Shown: in pieces, positions 29,817-39,750 of the stretch
Position numbering within the stretch: the first letter of the stretch is position 1
How the letters are laid out: every line of letters begins with the position of its first letter
NCBI GenBank assembly: GCA_016297965.1
Contig: JAEDDP010000004.1
Span: 15,661-79,660, forward strand
Origin: Alphaproteobacteria bacterium
Lineage (GTDB): Bacteria > Pseudomonadota > Alphaproteobacteria > Rs-D84 > CACZYB01
Direction: 5' to 3'
DNA length: 64,000 nucleotides
Notes under the pieces: model-generated
The model's database searches: none
What the model was told of the DNA's origin: nothing
What the model saw: only the letters and a program-made list of their open reading frames with translations
Translations under genes and position numbers: made by a program

Positions 29817-30302
29817 TTATCTTGATTTATTCATCGCATCTGAAATCAAGCTTGCAATTTCATTACTGTTAAGTGATGAAATTAAATCTTGCCAACAATC
29901 TTGACATTTCCACATATCGCAACAAATACCTTCACAATCTTTATTTGCAAATCTTGAACGTTCACGAATAAATGATTGAACATTTTTATCAATATTTGCA
30001 TTTTCAGCCATCGGACAAACACCATTCTTTAAATTCATAGTTTTAAGAAGCTTTTCAACATTATCACGAACTTCCTTACTTTCAAATTCATAACCATCCA
30101 ATCTTGAATAAAGTTCCCAAATTCTTTTATCTCTTGCATTTGCTAAAACAGTACTAATGTTTGTTTCTTTTTCGCTTGGGATATAGGTTTCATTATCAAT
30201 TGAAACAATACCTTCCCTATTACGTTTAATCAAATCATCAATACCTTGAATTTTTTCAATTTCTTTTTTGGCTTTTGCTGTTAATTTAAAAACTTTTTTC
30301 AT
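29817..30302 (-). CDS. Hypothetical protein (161 aa) with a Cys-rich C-terminal segment
   Basis: ORF with SD AAGGA. CEGICCDMWKCQDCW cluster. No recognised family. Confidence 0.5.
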   Translation of the reverse strand: MKKVFKLTAKAKKEIEKIQGIDDLIKRNREGIVSIDNETYIPSEKETNISTVLANARDKRIWELYSRLDGYEFESKEVRDNVEKLLKTMNLKNGVCPMAENANIDKNVQSFIRERSRFANKDCEGICCDMWKCQDCWQDLISSLNSNEIASLISDAMNKSR

Positions 30303-31439: not shown

Positions 31440-31595
31440 ATCATTTTCCTTATTTTATCTTTTTAGATTGAAGAGAATATAACTAAAAAATTTAAAATCA
31501 AGCAAAATAATAAAAGTATTTTATCCACATAATAATTATTGATACACACCCAAATTTTATGTATAATAAAAGTGAAAGATAAGGAGAATTCAAAA

Positions 31596-31865
31596 ATGAA
31601 AAAGCTTTTATTTACCGCAATACTTATTTCAATATTATCCTTTAATGCCTCTGCTGTAAAGGAGGTATACCAAACAATAGAAACGGAAAATGCAAAATAT
31701 TCCTGTTATGCAAAAACTTGCTCCCGCATTGATGGAAAGGAAGAAATTGGTGAAAAATTTTCATATACATCAATAACAACTTCAAATTCCGGAAAATCAT
31801 CATCAAAAAGACATTACTATTGCACCACAACAAAGGAAGGCGCAACCTGTAAGCTTTCACACTAA
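31596..31865 (+). CDS. Small secreted Cys-containing protein (89 aa)
   Basis: SD AAGGAG 7 nt upstream of the ATG at 31596, a signal peptide MKKLLFTAILISILSFNASA, and 4 Cys. Its stop overlaps the convergent comEC stop. Confidence 0.5.
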   Translation: MKKLLFTAILISILSFNASAVKEVYQTIETENAKYSCYAKTCSRIDGKEEIGEKFSYTSITTSNSGKSSSKRHYYCTTTKEGATCKLSH

Positions 31866-34507
31866 TCAAACGTTTTCAATACATTTGAAAATGAATCGTC
31901 ATTTTTATTTGGTGTATAACCATAAACCCACGGACGATTTCCGATATAGTTTTTAACCGTCCTAAATTTTACCTTTTTATCATCAAAGAAAAATTCGGCA
32001 CCCCTCGCCCGACGCAAAAATGACTTGTCAAACACCCTTTTCTTACATTTAAAAAAGGCCTTGTTTTTATAAAATGTTGTAAATAAAACATCACTATTTA
32101 AACAGGCATCCTTGTAATCCTTATATTGGTTTACAAACGACACATTCACACCGTTCAAATTGAAATTATCCTGACTGCTTTGTTCAATATTTTTTATTCC
32201 GGTATGTTGCGACCAACCATCCAAGGTCATTTTTGCCGGTGGATACTTACTTTTACTTACAACAACAATTTTATCCTTTTCCACAACACCAAACAAAGTC
32301 CCATTTTTATCCACCAAAAGATTAGGATTTTTTGTAAACACATACGACACCAAGCCCAAGCAAATAAAAACAAGTCCCAACTTTTTCCATTTTTGGCTCC
32401 AAAGGAAAAACCAAATCATTCCCAAAAGGATAAACATCAACGAAAAAAGACTCATTGATTTAACATCAATTGACGCATACGGAAGCGCAGAAACACGAAA
32501 TGCAAAGAAATTTATTCCATCAACCCCAAGTTCCGCCACCTTTAAAAACAACCATTCCAAACCAAATGGCATAGTTAAAAAGGCAAACAATATCGCCGGC
32601 ATAACCACAAAAGAAAACAACGGAATACCAAAGAAATTACCAAGTACACTATAAAGTTGTACTGTGTTAAAGTTGTAAACGACAAATGGCGCAATGGCAA
32701 GCCCCGTAAAAAACGAAGTCAAACTTGTCGCCCAAAATGTATTTAATAATTTTATGATTTTTGTTCTAAATGGTGATTCGTAATCATTGTTTGGAATAAT
32801 CCATGATTCCCGTTTTTCATACAGTTTTATAAGAGATACAACCGCAACAAATGACATTTGAAAACCGGCATTAACCAATGCTTCCGGCGACAACAATAAT
32901 ATTATAATCGCACTTACTGCAATGAACCGAAGGGAAAAAGGACTCCGGTCAATCAATACGGCAATAAGCGCCAATGTTGTCATAATGAATGCTCGTTGCG
33001 TTGGCAACCGCGCCCCACTTACAAACAAATAAAACACACTGAACATCAATGCAAAAACTACGGCAATTTTTTTTGTATTATACCTGTTTGACAACGGCAT
33101 CCAACATGCCAAAATCAACCGAACGACAAAAAATGCAAATCCCACAATTAAGGTCATATGGAATCCAGAAATGGCAAGCATATGTGATATACCGGCACCC
33201 TTGTACGCCTCTGAAATATCATCTGAAATTGAATAACGCTCCCCTGTCATCATTGACATAATAACACCGGATACATCCTTACTTGTATCACGTTCAACAG
33301 TTAAATTTATCCGATTTCTTAAATCCAAAAATTTAAAAAACAGATTTTCAAAAACGGAATTTTTAATTTGAACTTCGGAATATTTCCATCCATCAAACGA
33401 CCGGCCACTTGCTGATAATTCCTTATAATAAGAATATCGTGCAAAATCAAATCCATCAACAGTTATTGGTTCAAACGGAGGAATAAGTGAGGAATTAAAG
33501 GTCAATGTTTTTCCCATTTTCGGCATCCCAAAAGACTTATCAAACTTCACCCGAATTTTATTAAGTGGTACATTTTCCCCATCCACAACCTGCACCTTAT
33601 CAAAGGTAAGCCTGTACTGATTTTCAAAATTTTCACTGCTTATCACCCTTGCGGTAATTTGTGCATTTTTTATGTTTTTATCAAGAAGATACGTATTCAA
33701 CACATTTGTTTTAAGCTTTATTACAAACACCCCTAAAATAAAAAAGAATAAAACATAATTAAATGACACAACAAACCGAACACAACCATTTACAACATTT
33801 TCCGGAACATATTTAAAAACCAACCCAACCGTACGACGAAAGAACCGAACAACATTCCGACGAACGATTCTTTTTATACGAATAATAAAACGAACCAAAG
33901 GATTGTTAAAGATTCCACCAAACACAAATCCGGTTAACAACTTTGTCTTTTTGATAAGCAAACGAAAAACTTTGTGTACCGGTTTCTTTTTGTTATGCGA
34001 AGTTTTCACCACATTCTTTGAATACTTTGAAAGCTTTGTTTTTTGGAATCGGTTGGTAATCGGACGAAAAATAAACTTTATAACCTTCCAAATCCCCTTC
34101 ATCAAAGAATTATCGTATATAAGTGCAAAATATTTAAGGTAATAGGAATATTCAAGTATTGAAACAAACCAACTTCCAATCAAAATAAACAGTGTTATAT
34201 GCCCCACAATCGGAAATAATAATGCAAAAAGTGCAAACTTTAACACCTTTTTAATAATGTATTTGAAAGTAGAAAGAATAACTAAAAGCTTGTAACGCTT
34301 CACCTTATCCGACGAATTTCCAAAGTTCACAAACAAAAGAATAAGGCTACTTATAATAAAAACTAAATTTACAACCCAAGTTTTTGGCTCATTATACAAA
34401 TGAAAATAATACCCAATCCCAAGTCCAATAAACACCGGAATAAAAAGGGGAAAATTTTGAATTTCCTCCCGTAAATTAGAAACTATGTAAGAAAAAATCT
34501 TACCCAA
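31862..34507 (-). CDS. comEC: DNA internalisation competence protein ComEC/Rec2 family
   Basis: Polytopic membrane protein with the Competence-domain signature ISHMLAISGFHM. No HxHxDH metallo-beta-lactamase motif is visible in the C-terminal part. TTG start with AGAGGG as SD. Confidence 0.8.
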   Translation of the reverse strand: MGKIFSYIVSNLREEIQNFPLFIPVFIGLGIGYYFHLYNEPKTWVVNLVFIISSLILLFVNFGNSSDKVKRYKLLVILSTFKYIIKKVLKFALFALLFPIVGHITLFILIGSWFVSILEYSYYLKYFALIYDNSLMKGIWKVIKFIFRPITNRFQKTKLSKYSKNVVKTSHNKKKPVHKVFRLLIKKTKLLTGFVFGGIFNNPLVRFIIRIKRIVRRNVVRFFRRTVGLVFKYVPENVVNGCVRFVVSFNYVLFFFILGVFVIKLKTNVLNTYLLDKNIKNAQITARVISSENFENQYRLTFDKVQVVDGENVPLNKIRVKFDKSFGMPKMGKTLTFNSSLIPPFEPITVDGFDFARYSYYKELSASGRSFDGWKYSEVQIKNSVFENLFFKFLDLRNRINLTVERDTSKDVSGVIMSMMTGERYSISDDISEAYKGAGISHMLAISGFHMTLIVGFAFFVVRLILACWMPLSNRYNTKKIAVVFALMFSVFYLFVSGARLPTQRAFIMTTLALIAVLIDRSPFSLRFIAVSAIIILLLSPEALVNAGFQMSFVAVVSLIKLYEKRESWIIPNNDYESPFRTKIIKLLNTFWATSLTSFFTGLAIAPFVVYNFNTVQLYSVLGNFFGIPLFSFVVMPAILFAFLTMPFGLEWLFLKVAELGVDGINFFAFRVSALPYASIDVKSMSLFSLMFILLGMIWFFLWSQKWKKLGLVFICLGLVSYVFTKNPNLLVDKNGTLFGVVEKDKIVVVSKSKYPPAKMTLDGWSQHTGIKNIEQSSQDNFNLNGVNVSFVNQYKDYKDACLNSDVLFTTFYKNKAFFKCKKRVFDKSFLRRARGAEFFFDDKKVKFRTVKNYIGNRPWVYGYTPNKNDDSFSNVLKTFD

Positions 34508-34645: not shown

Positions 34646-34722
34646 CGGGGAGTAGCTCAGTCTGGTAGAGTACTAGTTTTGGGAACTAGGTGCCGCAAGT
34701 TCAAATCTTGTCTCCCCGACCA
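34646..34722 (+). tRNA. tRNA-Pro (anticodon UGG), CCA encoded
   Basis: Acceptor CGGGGAG/CTCCCCG, anticodon arm CTAGT-TTTGGGA-ACTAG, T-arm GCAAG-TTCAAAT-CTTGT. Confidence 0.92.
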
Positions 34723-34778: not shown

Positions 34779-34875
34779 ATATCTTTTTCAAACCGTTTTT
34801 TTACAAAAAAAATAAAAGCATCACTTTTATATGACGCCTTATTTTTTCTTAATTAAAAAGAAGGGAAAGAAACTT

Positions 34876-35745
34876 TTATCTCATCTTATCCAAAACTTCA
34901 TTCAACATTATCGCATTGATTTTACGACCATTATATTTGAATTTAATTTCATCCAATGCCCTTTTATGAAGGGATACATCGGAAAATGGAACCATACCTC
35001 TTTTTTCGTTAAACAAAGACATTTTCGCCATTGTTTCAACAAAAACCTTATCCGCCTTTGAAAGCTCACTTGTATAAATCATTTTATCTAATTCCCGTAT
35101 AAAGCTGTCAAAAAACTTTTCTGGGAAATACGATTTTTCAACAATCTTTCGTACAAAGTTCAAAACCTCACTAGTTTCAAGATTGTACTTATCACTTACA
35201 ATATACTTATGCGCCTGATTCAAATAAAATCCGGCATCATCTTCATCCTTATCCGAACTGCCAAGATAGCCAAGCACCAATCGATTCTTTAAAACACTAA
35301 CCAATTCTTCATAAAATTCCTTCCAAGAAATATCTGTAAGTGAATATTCTTCGCCAAAGGAATCAAGGAACTGACCTTCCCTGTCAAAAAAACCAGTCAT
35401 TTTATTATAGAGGAAAAAGTAATCCAAACCTTTTGAAAGGGAAATTTGTTTTGCAATCTTTGCACCAAATCTCTTATATGACATAGTCGCAATAACATCA
35501 GAATTATCAACTTCACCCAATTCATTTTGCTTTTTAAATAACAAAAGCTCACCATTTTTATTTCGCCTGCCTGCATCCGACAAAAGCTGTACTTTTTCAA
35601 CATGTTCCAAAACATTGGAATGTCTTGCATCATTGGGTGCCTTTATAACATCTGTTGCCAACACATTGTCCTGACCGCCCGGAACGAGATAAAGCACTTT
35701 TTGTTCTAAAACATCAATTTGTGGTATTTCATAAATATAAGACAT
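34876..35745 (-). CDS. Hypothetical protein (289 aa), translationally coupled partner of the RelA/SpoT-like ORF
   Basis: Its SD GAGGTG (35756..35751) overlaps the TGA stop of the upstream ORF. No recognisable domain. Confidence 0.6.
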   Translation of the reverse strand: MSYIYEIPQIDVLEQKVLYLVPGGQDNVLATDVIKAPNDARHSNVLEHVEKVQLLSDAGRRNKNGELLLFKKQNELGEVDNSDVIATMSYKRFGAKIAKQISLSKGLDYFFLYNKMTGFFDREGQFLDSFGEEYSLTDISWKEFYEELVSVLKNRLVLGYLGSSDKDEDDAGFYLNQAHKYIVSDKYNLETSEVLNFVRKIVEKSYFPEKFFDSFIRELDKMIYTSELSKADKVFVETMAKMSLFNEKRGMVPFSDVSLHKRALDEIKFKYNGRKINAIMLNEVLDKMR

Positions 35746-35754
35746 AATAACACC

Positions 35755-36780
35755 TCATAAATCTCTTGCTTGACAAAGAGCTTTCGTTAACGCAATGGAT
35801 GAACCTGCACGATTAAGCATTTCATCCCGTTCTTCTTTATTATCATTATAAGGAAGAATTTGAATTGAATTTGGATGGTTCACATTATAATTTGTGATAA
35901 CATTATCAACGTGAATTGCACGAAGCAAAGCCTTTAACACCTTTTTAAAGGTTTGTTCTGGCAAATCATCCCCAACCATAGGAGTAAACGTCCTTATTAT
36001 TTCATAAATAACGTGTGTTTTTTCATACACATCAACAAAGCAATCCAATGTTGCAATAACTTCACAAATTAAAAAATCACCCTTTCGTTTTCTCTTGCCA
36101 TCAATAAAGCTTGGGATTGGAATTTTAACATAAAATTTAAAGTCCATATAATTACTTGGTTTAAGACTTGGTTTCTTTGTTAAAAATCTGTATTTTTTTC
36201 TTTGTTTTTCATCAACATCTAATAAAAAGGAATTTGAAATGCAAATATCGGTCCGTGGCAAATTATTCATCAAATATTTTGCCGGATTATATCTTTTCAA
36301 AAGCTTATCTATTGTATGTGTTTTTTCAAGGACTGCATTACCTTTTTCATCCTTTACCGGTTCACCATTTTCATTCAATTTTTCGGAGATGTAGGTAAAG
36401 CTCTCATCGTTAAACGATGGTGATAAAAAGTCATAATTTTGTGTAAAATCATCTTCGGTAAATTTGGTCGTAGAAATAAATTGAAGGAAGTCCAACAATT
36501 CCTCAACTGTTTTAAATGAAACGGTACCCCTTACAACATCAAGAATATCACTGGCACCATAAATATCATCATCCTTTTCAATTTTTTCATTGATACGCTT
36601 TCTGCTTTTAAGTGGTACAACAGTTGTACGCATAGTCGTATTGTGTGCCTTTTCAAACTTTTCCTTTAATACAAGAAGAAAATAGTCAAAAGCACCCTTC
36701 ACTGCCCCACCAAAATTGATAAGGTCATCTACTTTCACATCATCTGGCTGTCTTGGTTTTCCCGTTCTAATATTTTCCAT
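35755..36780 (-). CDS. Divergent RelA/SpoT (RSH) synthetase-like protein (341 aa); functional call tentative
   Basis: aa 56-99 PLKSRKRINEKIEKDDDIYGASDILDVVRGTVSFKTVEELLDFL resembles RVKxxxSIxEK...DIxDIAGxRVxxxFxDDV. aa 210-260 NYMDFKFYVKI...FLICEVIATLDCFVDVYEKTHVIYE resembles GYRSxHxVV...xEIQIRTxxxxxWAxxEHxxxYK. An extra insertion of about 85 aa separates the two blocks. Confidence 0.4.
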   Translation of the reverse strand: MENIRTGKPRQPDDVKVDDLINFGGAVKGAFDYFLLVLKEKFEKAHNTTMRTTVVPLKSRKRINEKIEKDDDIYGASDILDVVRGTVSFKTVEELLDFLQFISTTKFTEDDFTQNYDFLSPSFNDESFTYISEKLNENGEPVKDEKGNAVLEKTHTIDKLLKRYNPAKYLMNNLPRTDICISNSFLLDVDEKQRKKYRFLTKKPSLKPSNYMDFKFYVKIPIPSFIDGKRKRKGDFLICEVIATLDCFVDVYEKTHVIYEIIRTFTPMVGDDLPEQTFKKVLKALLRAIHVDNVITNYNVNHPNSIQILPYNDNKEERDEMLNRAGSSIALTKALCQARDL

Positions 36781-36812
36781 AATACACTATACCTATTTTC
36801 CTTATTAACCAT

Positions 36813-36841
36813 AATATAATTACTTTGAACCCATTTGTCAA
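36813..36841 (-). promoter_or_regulatory. Near-consensus sigma70 promoter for the two-gene cassette
   Basis: On the minus strand: TTGACA (36841..36836), a 17-nt spacer, then TATATT (36818..36813). A second TTGACAAA lies 12 nt further upstream. Confidence 0.6.
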
Positions 36842-36860
36842 TAGTTTTGTCAAATTATTT

Positions 36861-38957
36861 TCAACCTTTCAAATTAAGACTTTTTGTACTATATTCAAAC
36901 AGATACAATAAATTTTGTAAATCCTTCCATCTTTGGGTATTATTTTTTTTGTCATACAAAAGGATATTTTTTACATCCTGCGATGCCGCCATAAACAGGT
37001 GGTAATCATCCTCAATATTAGCAATTTTAAAATCAACAATACCACTTTGCCGTATCCCCAAAATATCACCGGCACCACGAAGCTTTAAATCCTTTTCGGC
37101 AATCTTAAATCCATCGGTTGTTTCCTTCATCACCGAAAGCCGTTCCCTTGCCATCTTGCTAATCTTATTTGAATGAAGCAAAATACAAACAGACTTATCG
37201 CCACCACGACCAATTCGTCCCCTAAGTTGATGAAGTGAGGAAAGCCCAAATCGTTCACTGTGTTCTATAACCATCAATGTTGCCTCGGGAACATTAACAC
37301 CAACTTCAATAACCGTTGTAGCAACAAGTATTTTTATTTTTCCATTCGGATTCGCAAAATCGGACATTATAACATCCTTTTCCACACCCTTCATTTTTCC
37401 GTGAATAAGGGCAACCGCATCACCAAAAACACGTTTCATTTCTTCAAATCTGGTCTGGGCCGCCGATAAATCAAGCTTTTCACTTTCCTCCACCAACGGA
37501 CAAACCCAATAAAGCTTTTTAATACTTCCGTCATCAAGGTTCCGTTTAATTGATTGAATAAGTTCATCAATTTTTGACATATTCATAACAAGGGTTTCAA
37601 CTTTTTTCCGGTTCGGTGGCATTTCATCAATAACCGACAAATCCATATCCCCAAACGATGCCATGGCAAGGGTCCGTGGAATTGGCGTTGCCGTCATTGT
37701 CAAAATATTCGCACTAAATTCACCTCCCTTATCCGAAAGGTTAAGCCGTTGATGCACCCCAAATTTATGTTGTTCATCAATCACCGAAAGGTAAAGGTTT
37801 TTAAATTCAACACTGTCTTGAAAAAGCGCATGCGTTCCGATAACAATATCTACCATTCCGGATTTTAAAAGGTCAAGTTTTTCCCGTTTTACCTTCCCCT
37901 TATCCTTTCCGGTCAACAACATCAAACGAACCCTTTCACAAATTCCGGCATTATTAAGAAGTTTTGTAAATGTTTCAAAATGTTGTTCCGCCAAAATTTC
38001 CGTTGGAACCATAAAGGCACCCTGCCCGCCACCTTCCACAACCGAAAGAAGGGCAAGCATCGCAATAATCGTTTTACCACTTCCAACATCACCTTGAAGA
38101 AGGCGAAGCATTCGTTCATCCGAAACTAAATCATTATAAATTTCATTCCATACCCGATTTTGCGCACCCGTAAGTTCAAACCCAAACGCCCGCAAAAAAG
38201 GAACGGTAAGACTTCCATCCGCCAAAACTTTTACACCCTTTTCTTTCTTAAAATTTTCCCGCGATAATGCAAGGGCAAGCTGGTTCGCCAATATCTCATC
38301 ATAGGCAATTCTTTCCCTCGCCCGTGTTATAACATCATTATTTTTTTGCGGATTATGAAGTCGTTTTAATGCATCCGAAAATGAAATCTCTGCTCCATCT
38401 TGCCATTCCGGTAGGTCCGGTAAATTATTAAGGAGTATTGAAACAACATTCCGTATCATCTTGTTTGTAATGGCATAGGTAAGCGGATATATTGGTTCCA
38501 ACGTTGCAATTTTTTCAAAATCAGACACCGACACAATATAATCCGGATGGGAAATACTCCGTTCTCCATTAAATTCATCCACCTTGCCACTTACACAAAC
38601 CTTTCCACCAACTGGAAGTTGCCGTTTAAGGTAATCACCGGCATTAAAAAAGTTAAGTGTTATCAAACCACTTTCATCACTACATAAAACTTTGTACGGA
38701 ATTTTCCGACCACGAACAAACGGCGCAGGAGTATGTTTTAAAATATTAAGCCGAAGGGTGGCAATTTTTCCAATTTCCGCATCCATAATCAACGGACAAT
38801 AACTTCTATCAATAAAACTAACCGGAAAATGAAAAAGCAAATCTTTAAACCTTGTATTCGGTAAAAGTCGCGAAAGTCCATCAAAAAACTTTTCACCAAC
38901 CCCCTTTACCTGACGCAAAGATTTAAAAAAATATTGTAAATTTTCCTGCATAACCAT
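36861..38957 (-). CDS. recG: ATP-dependent DNA helicase RecG
   Basis: Walker A GDVGSGKT, DEQHKFG, QLRGRIGRG, and an N-terminal wedge/OB region. Confidence 0.95.
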   Translation of the reverse strand: MVMQENLQYFFKSLRQVKGVGEKFFDGLSRLLPNTRFKDLLFHFPVSFIDRSYCPLIMDAEIGKIATLRLNILKHTPAPFVRGRKIPYKVLCSDESGLITLNFFNAGDYLKRQLPVGGKVCVSGKVDEFNGERSISHPDYIVSVSDFEKIATLEPIYPLTYAITNKMIRNVVSILLNNLPDLPEWQDGAEISFSDALKRLHNPQKNNDVITRARERIAYDEILANQLALALSRENFKKEKGVKVLADGSLTVPFLRAFGFELTGAQNRVWNEIYNDLVSDERMLRLLQGDVGSGKTIIAMLALLSVVEGGGQGAFMVPTEILAEQHFETFTKLLNNAGICERVRLMLLTGKDKGKVKREKLDLLKSGMVDIVIGTHALFQDSVEFKNLYLSVIDEQHKFGVHQRLNLSDKGGEFSANILTMTATPIPRTLAMASFGDMDLSVIDEMPPNRKKVETLVMNMSKIDELIQSIKRNLDDGSIKKLYWVCPLVEESEKLDLSAAQTRFEEMKRVFGDAVALIHGKMKGVEKDVIMSDFANPNGKIKILVATTVIEVGVNVPEATLMVIEHSERFGLSSLHQLRGRIGRGGDKSVCILLHSNKISKMARERLSVMKETTDGFKIAEKDLKLRGAGDILGIRQSGIVDFKIANIEDDYHLFMAASQDVKNILLYDKKNNTQRWKDLQNLLYLFEYSTKSLNLKG

Positions 38958-39012: not shown

Positions 39013-39750
39013 CTATCGGATTTTTTTCAAAATATCATCCAAAACACAGCTTGATGAAAAAACTTCTTCTATTTGATATTTGTAAACTATTGCCGTATCA
39101 GCAATATATGGGTCAAATAAAATACTTTTGTTCTTTTTAAGATAGTTTAGTGTTTCCAACAATGTAAACGGATTTTTATTATAACACCGTGTACCCATAA
39201 GCGCCGAAATCACATCGGCAACCTTTGCCACACGACCAAGAAGAGAAATTTCCGTTCCCTTTTTACCAAACGGATAACCTGTACCATTATAATTTTCGTG
39301 ATGTTCGGTAATTACACACAATGCCGCCTTATAAAATTCTCCCTCATATTTTGTAAGGTTTTTCTTTAACAACATCAACTCAATTAAAATTTGTTTACCA
39401 TAAAGTGGATGAAGTTTAATCTGATTATATTCATCTTTGGTCAATGCAAACGGTTTATTAAGTATTTTTTCGGAAATTCTTAATTTGCCTAAATCATGTA
39501 CTTCATAGATGTACGACAAAGTATCCAAATCAATGTTTTTAAAAACACTTTCTTCAATCCCAGAAATTGAAACTTTTTTAAAATCAATATTTTTCAAAAT
39601 CACTCTGGCAATTTGTGAAACTTCACGACTGTGCTTTGCCAAATCAACACTTTTTGAATAGGTAATTTTTGAAATTAAATCTATCGTATCCTGTACATAA
39701 AGCACGGATTTTTCATTCATCGTAGCGGTATCTTCAACAGATATTTTCAT
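39013..39750 (-). CDS. Stand-alone HD-GYP domain protein (putative cyclic-dinucleotide phosphodiesterase)
   Basis: HDLGKL and HHENYNGTGYP motifs. No receiver or other sensor domain was recognised. Confidence 0.78.
   Translation of the reverse strand: MKISVEDTATMNEKSVLYVQDTIDLISKITYSKSVDLAKHSREVSQIARVILKNIDFKKVSISGIEESVFKNIDLDTLSYIYEVHDLGKLRISEKILNKPFALTKDEYNQIKLHPLYGKQILIELMLLKKNLTKYEGEFYKAALCVITEHHENYNGTGYPFGKKGTEISLLGRVAKVADVISALMGTRCYNKNPFTLLETLNYLKKNKSILFDPYIADTAIVYKYQIEEVFSSSCVLDDILKKIR

Follow-up and report, generated by a model that had tools for sequence, protein, structure and literature searches.

A recG-linked operon encoding a divergent RSH-type protein and an orphan partner in gut and rumen Alphaproteobacteria

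A two-gene operon between recG and tRNA-Pro(UGG)

We analyzed a 64,000-nucleotide stretch of an alphaproteobacterial contig (JAEDDP010000004.1, assembly GCA_016297965.1), hereafter the window, whose coordinates are used throughout, with a focus on two adjacent genes on its reverse strand. The first encodes a 341-amino-acid protein (ORF341; 35755..36780) that, as described below, carries the synthetase (SYNTH) fold of the RelA/SpoT homologue (RSH) superfamily, and the second encodes a 289-amino-acid partner protein (ORF289; 34876..35745). The two genes together are referred to as the pair. A sequence-only reading had portrayed them as an orphan cassette, possibly of toxin-antitoxin (TA) or defense type, made up of a degenerate RSH protein and a protein that fits no family. 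Both open reading frames are indeed present as described between recG and tRNA-Pro(UGG), yet our combined findings indicate that the pair is not an orphan and, within its clade, not mobile in character, and that its first protein is less degenerate than was claimed.

The pair forms an operon of two genes that has a sigma-70 promoter of its own. The recG gene (36861..38957, reverse strand; domains identified by Pfam) lies upstream of ORF341, and the 80-nt spacer between them in the window contains a −35 hexamer, TTGACA (36841..36836), followed after 17 nt by a −10 hexamer, TATATT (36813..36818), both on the reverse strand. This promoter, already picked out by eye, matches the consensus at 11 of 12 positions and was the top-scoring site of the region in a promoter scan. 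It is kept, with an equivalent −10 element, in all six syntenic loci compared, and is thus more than a chance match in AT-rich DNA. The intergenic region between recG and ORF341 is near-identical in a close strain, L025.

The −35 hexamer is itself the downstream copy of a tandem direct repeat, TTGACAAAA-CTA-TTGACAAA (36834..36853, reverse strand), which occurs in this exact form only once in the window. The tandem arrangement TTGACAAAA-N3/4-TTGACAAA, with a period of 12-13 bp, is kept in five of the six syntenic loci (the window, L006, L007, L009 and L010), and the spacer between recG and the RSH-like gene of L013 contains two copies of TTGACAAA about 90 bp apart. The upstream copy is possibly an operator or UP-like element, and the repeat as a whole could act as an operator, bound by a regulator or used in autoregulation, beyond merely supplying the −35 hexamer.

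The two genes are arranged for translational coupling, as the sequence-only reading had proposed. The Shine-Dalgarno sequence of ORF289, GAGGTG (35752..35757, reverse strand), lies over the TGA stop codon of ORF341 (35755..35757) and is separated by 5 nt from the ATG of ORF289. The same overlap of stop codon and Shine-Dalgarno sequence recurs in all six syntenic loci, with intergenic gaps of 2-9 nt. Directly 3′ of ORF289, a terminator scan found a terminator-like hairpin with a T-run (34815..34840, reverse strand), and further downstream lies tRNA-Pro(UGG) (34646..34722, forward strand), identified by both ARAGORN and Rfam and convergent with the pair. The only Rfam matches in the window were four tRNAs.

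Fold, homology and conserved positions of ORF341

ORF341 had been assigned to the RSH enzymes by eye, with the RelA_SpoT profile (PF04607) named as one check. That profile gave no match to ORF341 even at E ≤ 10, and ORF341 likewise matched no other model in Pfam and none in NCBIfam, PADLOC or PHROG. Only one member of its family, the distant relative P0029, reached a sub-threshold match to PF04607 (22 bits against a cut-off of 27). Single-sequence searches of the PDB with ORF341 found nothing.

Structure and profile comparisons bore out the assignment nonetheless. An AlphaFold2 (AF2) model of ORF341, built from an input alignment of 9 sequences, had a mean predicted local distance difference test score (pLDDT) of 79.7 and a predicted TM-score of 0.83, and its order of secondary-structure elements is consistent with the RSH topology. 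When the model was compared with the PDB using Foldseek, all of the significant matches were RSH synthetases, as were 38 of the top 40, with probabilities of 1.0, E-values down to 9.5e-5 and TM-scores up to 0.63 on target length. The matches included CapRel (7ztb; the top match, E 9.5e-5), RelP, RelQ/SAS1, smu.1046c and the exported small alarmone synthetase (SAS) 8vx3 (SaSAS).

For profile-profile comparison we built an Apk1/EAS reference set by aligning the sequences of Tas1/Apk1, SaEAS and Vibrio EAS given in the supplement of PMC12691689. In hhalign, the ORF341 family matched this set with 97.3% probability (E 2.5e-11) over 152 columns, spanning the region from an N-terminal K-P-x-Q-P motif to T-H-x-x-Y-E-x-x-R; hhalign E-values here refer to pairwise comparisons, with reference alignments of small size. 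As a positive control, the Apk1/EAS set matched canonical RSH at 97.7%, while negative controls with the partner family gave 0.08% and 0.6%. Compared directly with canonical RSH SYNTH fragments, the ORF341 family reached only 5%, so that its link to canonical RSH is significant only by way of the Tas1/EAS set. Against a three-sequence RelQ alignment the register was correct with a probability of 1.3%, a low value explained by the shallowness of that reference.

Searches of the PDB with the family profile point the same way. The top sequence matches were Tas1 (E 0.013), in which PIKSRERAMQKI...DLARNTIIV pairs with the family's PlKekerieeKl...DivRatvvf, and SaSAS, in which EVQFHT...THKLYEEQR pairs with the ORF341 family; a profile of the C-terminal half alone yielded only a weak match to SaSAS. 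The Foldseek matches, the hhalign match to the Tas1/EAS set and the controls together identify ORF341 as remotely related to, and part of, the Tas1(Apk1)/EAS wing of the RSH enzymes.

The motifs that the sequence-only reading had quoted are real and correspond to the conserved blocks of the family, in the same register as that given by the RelQ and Tas1/EAS alignments. The SYNTH-like core, delimited by conserved columns and by these alignments, covers residues 8-269 (35974..36759, reverse strand). Its first half runs from K-P-x-Q-P...L-Y through the donor helix P-x-K58-x-R-x-R62-x3-K66 to D81-x-x-R84-x-T86, and its second half comprises the G-loop (Y211-M-D213-F-K215), the catalytic strand (C-E240-V-I-A-T-L) and the helix T255-H256-x-x-Y-E260-x-x-R263. 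In a family alignment of 20 sequences, reaching down to 22% identity, the invariant columns were D81, R84, F185, E240, H256, R263, Y298 and N299, and the near-invariant ones included P9, K58, R62, K66, Y211, M212, D213, K215, T255 and E260.

Nearly all catalytic positions are therefore conserved, and the protein is less degenerate than that label implied. K58, K66, D81, R84, Y211 and E240 are each invariant or at least 90% kept, and align with their counterparts in Tas1 and RelQ. With residue roles as assigned in FaRel2 (PMC11782079), K58 and K66 (K55 and K63 in Tas1) correspond to the lysines that contact the donor triphosphate, D81 (Tas1 D77) to the Mg ligand, Y211 (Tas1 Y116) to the G-loop tyrosine that stacks on the acceptor, and E240 (Tas1 E132) to the catalytic glutamate. 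R84 and T86 align with Tas1 R80 and T82, and H256, Y259, E260 and R263 with Tas1 GHKYYEDWR.

Three motifs, D-x-x-R-x-T, H-x-x-Y-E-x-x-R and the N-terminal P-x-Q-P...L-Y, are common specifically to the family and Tas1, SaEAS and Vibrio EAS. ORF341 has DVVRGT, THVIYEIIR and PLKSRKRINEKI, where Tas1 has DLARNT, GHKYYEDWR and PIKSRERAMQKI and SaEAS has DAVRYT and THKLYEEQR.

Two regions set ORF341 apart from these relatives. Between the motif halves lies a variable insertion at about residues 105-175 (36256..36468, reverse strand), recognized from the alignments and with low pLDDT at 118-121 and 157-163. It adds about 90 residues relative to Tas1 and RelQ (T86 to Y211 spans 125 residues, against 34 in Tas1), close to the roughly 85 estimated by eye, and relatives differ in its length by as much as about 100 residues. 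The second is the C-terminal extension, conserved and about 72 residues long (270-341; 35758..35973, reverse strand), lying beyond the region aligned by hhalign. Its kept residues, D271-D272, Y298-N299, I306, P310, D313 and R318, have no counterpart in Tas1/EAS. ORF341 has no hydrophobic N-terminus or signal peptide and, by Pfam, no delivery domain such as PAAR/Rhs, LXG/WXG, MuF, XopAD or DUF4157, and starts about 8 residues ahead of the SYNTH core.

The partner family and the inheritance of the pair

The inability to place ORF289 in any family held throughout our searches. No sequence match was found in the PDB (with the single sequence or a profile), Pfam, NCBIfam, PADLOC or PHROGs. Its AF2 model (pLDDT 75.7) shows an antiparallel beta domain at the N-terminus and a helical bundle at the C-terminus, and no structure in the PDB (best E 0.18) or BFVD matched it significantly. 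Neither a DNA-binding nor a known antitoxin domain was found in ORF289 by Pfam or by PDB fold and profile searches. Judged from the model and these searches, the partner represents a new protein family with no recognizable fold relatives.

Homologues of ORF289 were recognized by synteny at 39-47% identity, and more were found through an alignment query; a first word-index search had overlooked real homologues, which synteny and the alignment query recovered. Across 14 partner sequences, including distant ones, only Y90, F120, F144, Y145 and K153 are invariant; neither H179 nor any acidic residue is conserved throughout. This invariant set is aromatic or hydrophobic with one lysine and includes no catalytic-looking group, so that, from its sequence, ORF289 looks like a binding protein more than an enzyme. 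The ORF289 of the window also has an acidic insertion of its own, about 26 residues long (~27-52; 35590..35667, reverse strand), of low pLDDT and absent from all other homologues, which moves its isoelectric point (pI) from about 9 to 5.6.

Homologues of ORF341 range from 33% to 99% identity, and only 28 proteins of the family were recovered when 1.84 billion representatives were searched exhaustively with the profile. With one genome considered per species, five of 185,579 species carried the family, all of them metagenome-assembled genomes of uncultured gut or rumen Alphaproteobacteria. The order priA-recG-RSH-like gene-partner was found in every gut or rumen alphaproteobacterial locus examined, with the RSH-like gene following recG after 71-146 nt and the partner following at the same short gap as in the six loci above. 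Identity across syntenic loci was 56-77% for RecG, 33-55% for the RSH-like protein and 26-51% for the partner. Overall, the partner lies directly downstream in 16 of the 18 loci with an RSH-like gene that were examined (gap −8 to +14 nt), including distant members from other metagenomes (L011, L021, L022 and L024) in which the pair stands in contexts other than recG. Behind recG, the pair was absent from lineages whose RecG is ≤55% identical, these being the only lineages that a metagenome RecG scan returned.

Retention of the two genes together in distant contexts, combined with their fixation behind recG, points to an old functional module that became positionally fixed in the clade. Strict conservation at the locus across the whole order had been named as a sign against the sequence-only reading. 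The fixation of the pair in the gut and rumen clade comes close to that sign where a selfish or defense module is concerned; distant lineages also carry the pair in other surroundings.

The pair is vertically inherited in this clade and is under purifying selection. Relative to the close strain L025, the ratio of nonsynonymous to synonymous substitution rates (dN/dS) was 0.10 for ORF341, 0.22 for ORF289 and 0.17 for recG. The base composition of the pair is ordinary, no PADLOC match was found for any of 20 ORF341-family members, and a scan of viral contigs with the family profile returned no relatives. These features, and the shared priA-recG-pair-tRNA-Pro-comEC position, run counter to the mobile, defense-island character that had been suggested. 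We also considered recent horizontal acquisition and rejected it given the normal composition and clade-wide inheritance, and the tRNA-Pro as an integration site or scar, rejected since the same tRNA-Pro lies downstream of the pair in L006, L007, L008 and L013 and belongs to the conserved ancestral synteny. No canonical RSH was found in a search limited to the window and the loci retrieved from relatives.

Several observations concern the surroundings of the pair. A 245-amino-acid HD_5/HD (HD-GYP-type) protein (39013..39750, reverse strand; Pfam E 4e-17) lies between priA and recG in the window and in L025, while priA directly abuts recG in L004, L007, L009 and L010; this protein is not of the SpoT/SAH HD family and thus has no evident tie to alarmone hydrolysis. 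The interval from the partner and tRNA-Pro to comEC (31862..34507 in the window) is a variable spot among relatives, holding czcD and a csoR-like gene in L001, several small genes including DIT1_PvcA and His_Phos_1 in L013, and IMPDH and others in L009, which suggests local gene flux adjoining an otherwise fixed block. Two small open reading frames of the window without Pfam matches, one of 108 amino acids with a signal-peptide-like N-terminus, MKKLLFTAILISILSFNASA (31539..31865, forward strand), and one of 161 amino acids with a Cys-rich C-terminus (29817..30302, reverse strand), have equivalents flanking comEC and marC in relatives. Finally, in L012 (1..3900), the solitary family member P0029, which sits between a HAD gene and gyrA, is about 4 kb from a phage-like block (Phage_capsid_2, T7 capsid, GH108 and Hydrolase_2) on a Gram-negative chromosome fragment.

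Possible roles of the pair

An RSH synthetase paired with a cognate protein is already known as a kind of system; what is new here is a branch invisible to current models, an altered E-x-Q motif, a novel partner family and chromosomal domestication. The closest comparison is with Tas1/Apk1, the (p)ppApp synthetase effector of the type VI secretion system of P. aeruginosa with its immunity protein Tis1, together with the Apk2-BcTis1-Aph1 system. The SYNTH fold is shared, Tas1 is the best sequence match in the PDB, and the motifs P-x-K-S-R-x-R-x-x-x-K, D-x-x-R-x-T, G/N-Y, the catalytic-strand E and H-x-x-Y-E-x-x-R are held in common, as is the order of an enzyme gene followed by a cognate-looking gene. 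ORF341 differs in its insertion and extension and in lacking a PAAR, MuF or other delivery domain, which argues that it is not secreted. ORF289 is unrelated to Tis1 and to the HD hydrolase Aph1, and the pair differs from these systems in its chromosomal fixation and vertical inheritance.

With the EAS enzymes (SaEAS of Streptomyces, PDB 8vx3, which was itself a Foldseek match; VpEAS of Vibrio) ORF341 shares D-x-x-R-x-T, and P-x-Q-P...L-Y with Vibrio EAS; the EAS motifs S-G-Y-R-D-L-N and T-H-K-L-Y-E-E-Q-R compare with S-N-Y-M-D-F-K and T-H-V-I-Y-E-I-I-R in ORF341. EAS genes that encode signal peptides, however, have no co-operonic immunity genes (PMC12691689), whereas ORF341 has no Sec signal peptide and its gene has a coupled partner.

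Like the toxic SAS enzymes (toxSAS: FaRel, FaRel2, PhRel, PhRel2 and CapRel, the last its top structural match), ORF341 is a small single-domain RSH protein encoded in a conserved, near-overlapping bicistronic operon. It departs from them in having no PF04607 match, a large, basic partner with no known antitoxin domain, no mobility or defense context within the clade, and motifs that favor the Tas1/EAS branch over the toxSAS subfamilies. With the housekeeping enzymes RelQ and RelP (SAS1 and SAS2) it shares the fold and the state of a stable chromosomal gene under purifying selection. ORF341 departs from every one of the motifs D-x-x-G-x-R, G-Y-R-S-x-H, E-I-Q-I-R-T and E-H-x-x-x-Y-K, its family reaches only the 5% hhalign probability against canonical RSH, and RelQ and RelP have no obligatory coupled partner.

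We favor, with a probability of roughly 0.55, an interpretation in which the pair comprises a chromosomally fixed Tas1/toxSAS-like pyrophosphokinase, most likely restrained or regulated through binding by its coupled cognate partner, the two acting together as a domesticated growth-control or signaling module. ORF341 would be a cytoplasmic, single-domain pyrophosphokinase of the RSH synthetase type, from a very divergent and unannotated branch of the Tas1(Apk1)/EAS wing. By analogy with its relatives, it would bind ATP-Mg through K58, R60/R62, K66 and D81, the purine acceptor would stack on the G-loop Tyr211, and Glu240 would assist transfer of pyrophosphate to the 3′-OH of the acceptor, producing (p)ppApp and/or (p)ppGpp. 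The translationally coupled ORF289 would be a non-enzymatic cognate binder that restrains or regulates the enzyme in the manner of an immunity protein or antitoxin. Fixed behind recG in the clade, and in this unlike classical toxSAS TA or effector-immunity pairs, the module would act in domesticated, vertically inherited growth control or signaling. Our analyses establish the fold and homology of ORF341, its conserved catalytic positions, the anatomy and synteny of the operon and the purifying selection on it; the catalysis, product and toxicity of ORF341, as well as its direct binding and neutralization by ORF289, we infer.

Three lines of argument favor an active ORF341 that is restrained or regulated by its partner. 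Cytoplasmic Apk/EAS enzymes are lethal unless neutralized or exported (PMC12691689), conservation of a SAS gene in a bicistronic layout is an accepted sign that the SAS is toxic (PMC7229694), and both proteins of the pair diverge rapidly on long timescales, in the manner of antagonist pairs.

A number of findings weigh against this interpretation. The glutamine of E-x-Q (Tas1 Q134), which touches the donor adenine in FaRel2 (PMC11782079), is I242 in ORF341, in agreement with what had been seen by eye, and is Ile, Leu or Val in most family members, with Gln only in P0026. The Asn/His after the G-loop (Tas1 N120) is K215. Both Q134 and N120 are invariant in the Tas1/EAS set, so that the activity or the substrate of ORF341 could differ. 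As for the partner, its AF2 model is only moderately reliable, with one good model of five, and Pfam and PDB searches found no likeness between ORF289 and Tis1, ATfaRel2/pZFD (YXXY), Panacea or SAH/Aph1. The partners are large (~260 amino acids) and basic (pI about 9.0-9.2 in 10 of 11), while the RSH-like proteins are near neutral (pI about 6-7), the opposite of what is usual for type II TA pairs. Two distant family members, P0029 and P0026, have no partner. Finally, the strict synteny is compatible with housekeeping, a role that would not require the partner to be inhibitory.

This last point leads to the main rival, which we regard as a serious but minority possibility. Under it, ORF341 would be the lineage's endogenous small alarmone synthetase in a housekeeping second-messenger system, and ORF289 would be a nucleotide receptor or effector, or an adaptor subunit that specifies the substrate or localizes the enzyme, rather than an inhibitor. 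The strictly vertical position behind recG, purifying selection as strong as that on recG, normal base composition and the lack of defense or phage signatures in PADLOC, PHROG and viral contigs are all consistent with such a role, as are the existence of members without a partner and a partner that is large and basic with a well-conserved central helix. The nearest characterized relatives, however, are all fast, toxic (p)ppApp/(p)ppGpp synthetases (PMC12691689, PMC10083569). In addition, the RSH-like protein and the partner diverge far more than RecG across the same loci, a pattern typical of co-evolving antagonist pairs, and no nucleotide-binding fold is recognizable in the partner among PDB and BFVD structures.

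It is rather improbable that the pair is a classical toxSAS type II TA or abortive-infection module retained at one locus, in which phage or stress would free the toxin from a labile antitoxin and arrest growth. The coupled two-gene layout with the SAS-type gene first resembles several toxSAS and effector-immunity pairs, the pair turns up together in unrelated surroundings in some distant lineages (L021, L022 and L024), and the tandem promoter repeat could act as an operator for autoregulation. Yet neither empty sites nor patchy presence was seen among the clade loci examined, and the low dN/dS, the reversed charge pattern, and the failure to detect a mobile-element or defense-island context, a PADLOC match, or a DNA-binding or known antitoxin domain in the partner all argue against it.

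The two remaining alternatives are less likely still. ORF341 could be a pyrophosphokinase of the tRNA 3′-CCA end like FaRel2 and CapRel, with the basic partner aiding tRNA or ribosome binding or masking the tRNA site. The top Foldseek match, at full length, is the tRNA pyrophosphokinase CapRel, which also has an extra C-terminal extension. We nevertheless consider this quite unlikely, as the TM-scores to CapRel are low (0.35), the enzyme is not basic, and by its motifs the family belongs with the nucleotide-producing Tas1/EAS branch and not with FaRel2/CapRel. Least probable of all is a pseudoenzyme that keeps the RSH fold for binding or scaffolding without pyrophosphate transfer, since, despite the Gln-to-Ile replacement, the missing R of the R-x-K motif and the invisibility of the domain to PF04607, very divergent members retain, with few or no exceptions, the Mg-binding Asp, the catalytic Glu, the two Lys of the donor helix, Arg84 and the Tyr of the G-loop, the very fast enzyme Tas1 likewise has no R in R-x-K (PIK), and the dN/dS of ORF341 is 0.10.

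RSH enzymes have been surveyed by profile hidden Markov models. The ORF341 branch is missed by those of Pfam, NCBIfam and PADLOC, and was not found in the portion of the Apk1-homologue lists of PMC12691689 available to us, including the 1,369-sequence final set, which suggests that the RSH/toxSAS superfamily is broader than the censuses indicate. Here, kin of extremely fast enzymes that serve as lethal weapons are retained in gut commensals as a stable, selected chromosomal operon. The pair may thus be a test case for the taming of toxic alarmone synthetases and for possible physiological roles of (p)ppApp, with ORF289 as a candidate new class of RSH neutralizer or regulator. More speculatively, and with odds well short of even, a Tas1/EAS-type synthetase may have been domesticated throughout a clade of gut Alphaproteobacteria as an endogenous, vertically inherited nucleotide-signaling enzyme, perhaps making (p)ppApp or, given the Gln-to-Ile change, using an unusual donor or acceptor, with a partner of previously unseen fold controlling or reading out its product. 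If this were so, the chemistry of a toxin would constitute a physiological second-messenger system, genetically anchored beside the replication-restart helicases PriA and RecG.

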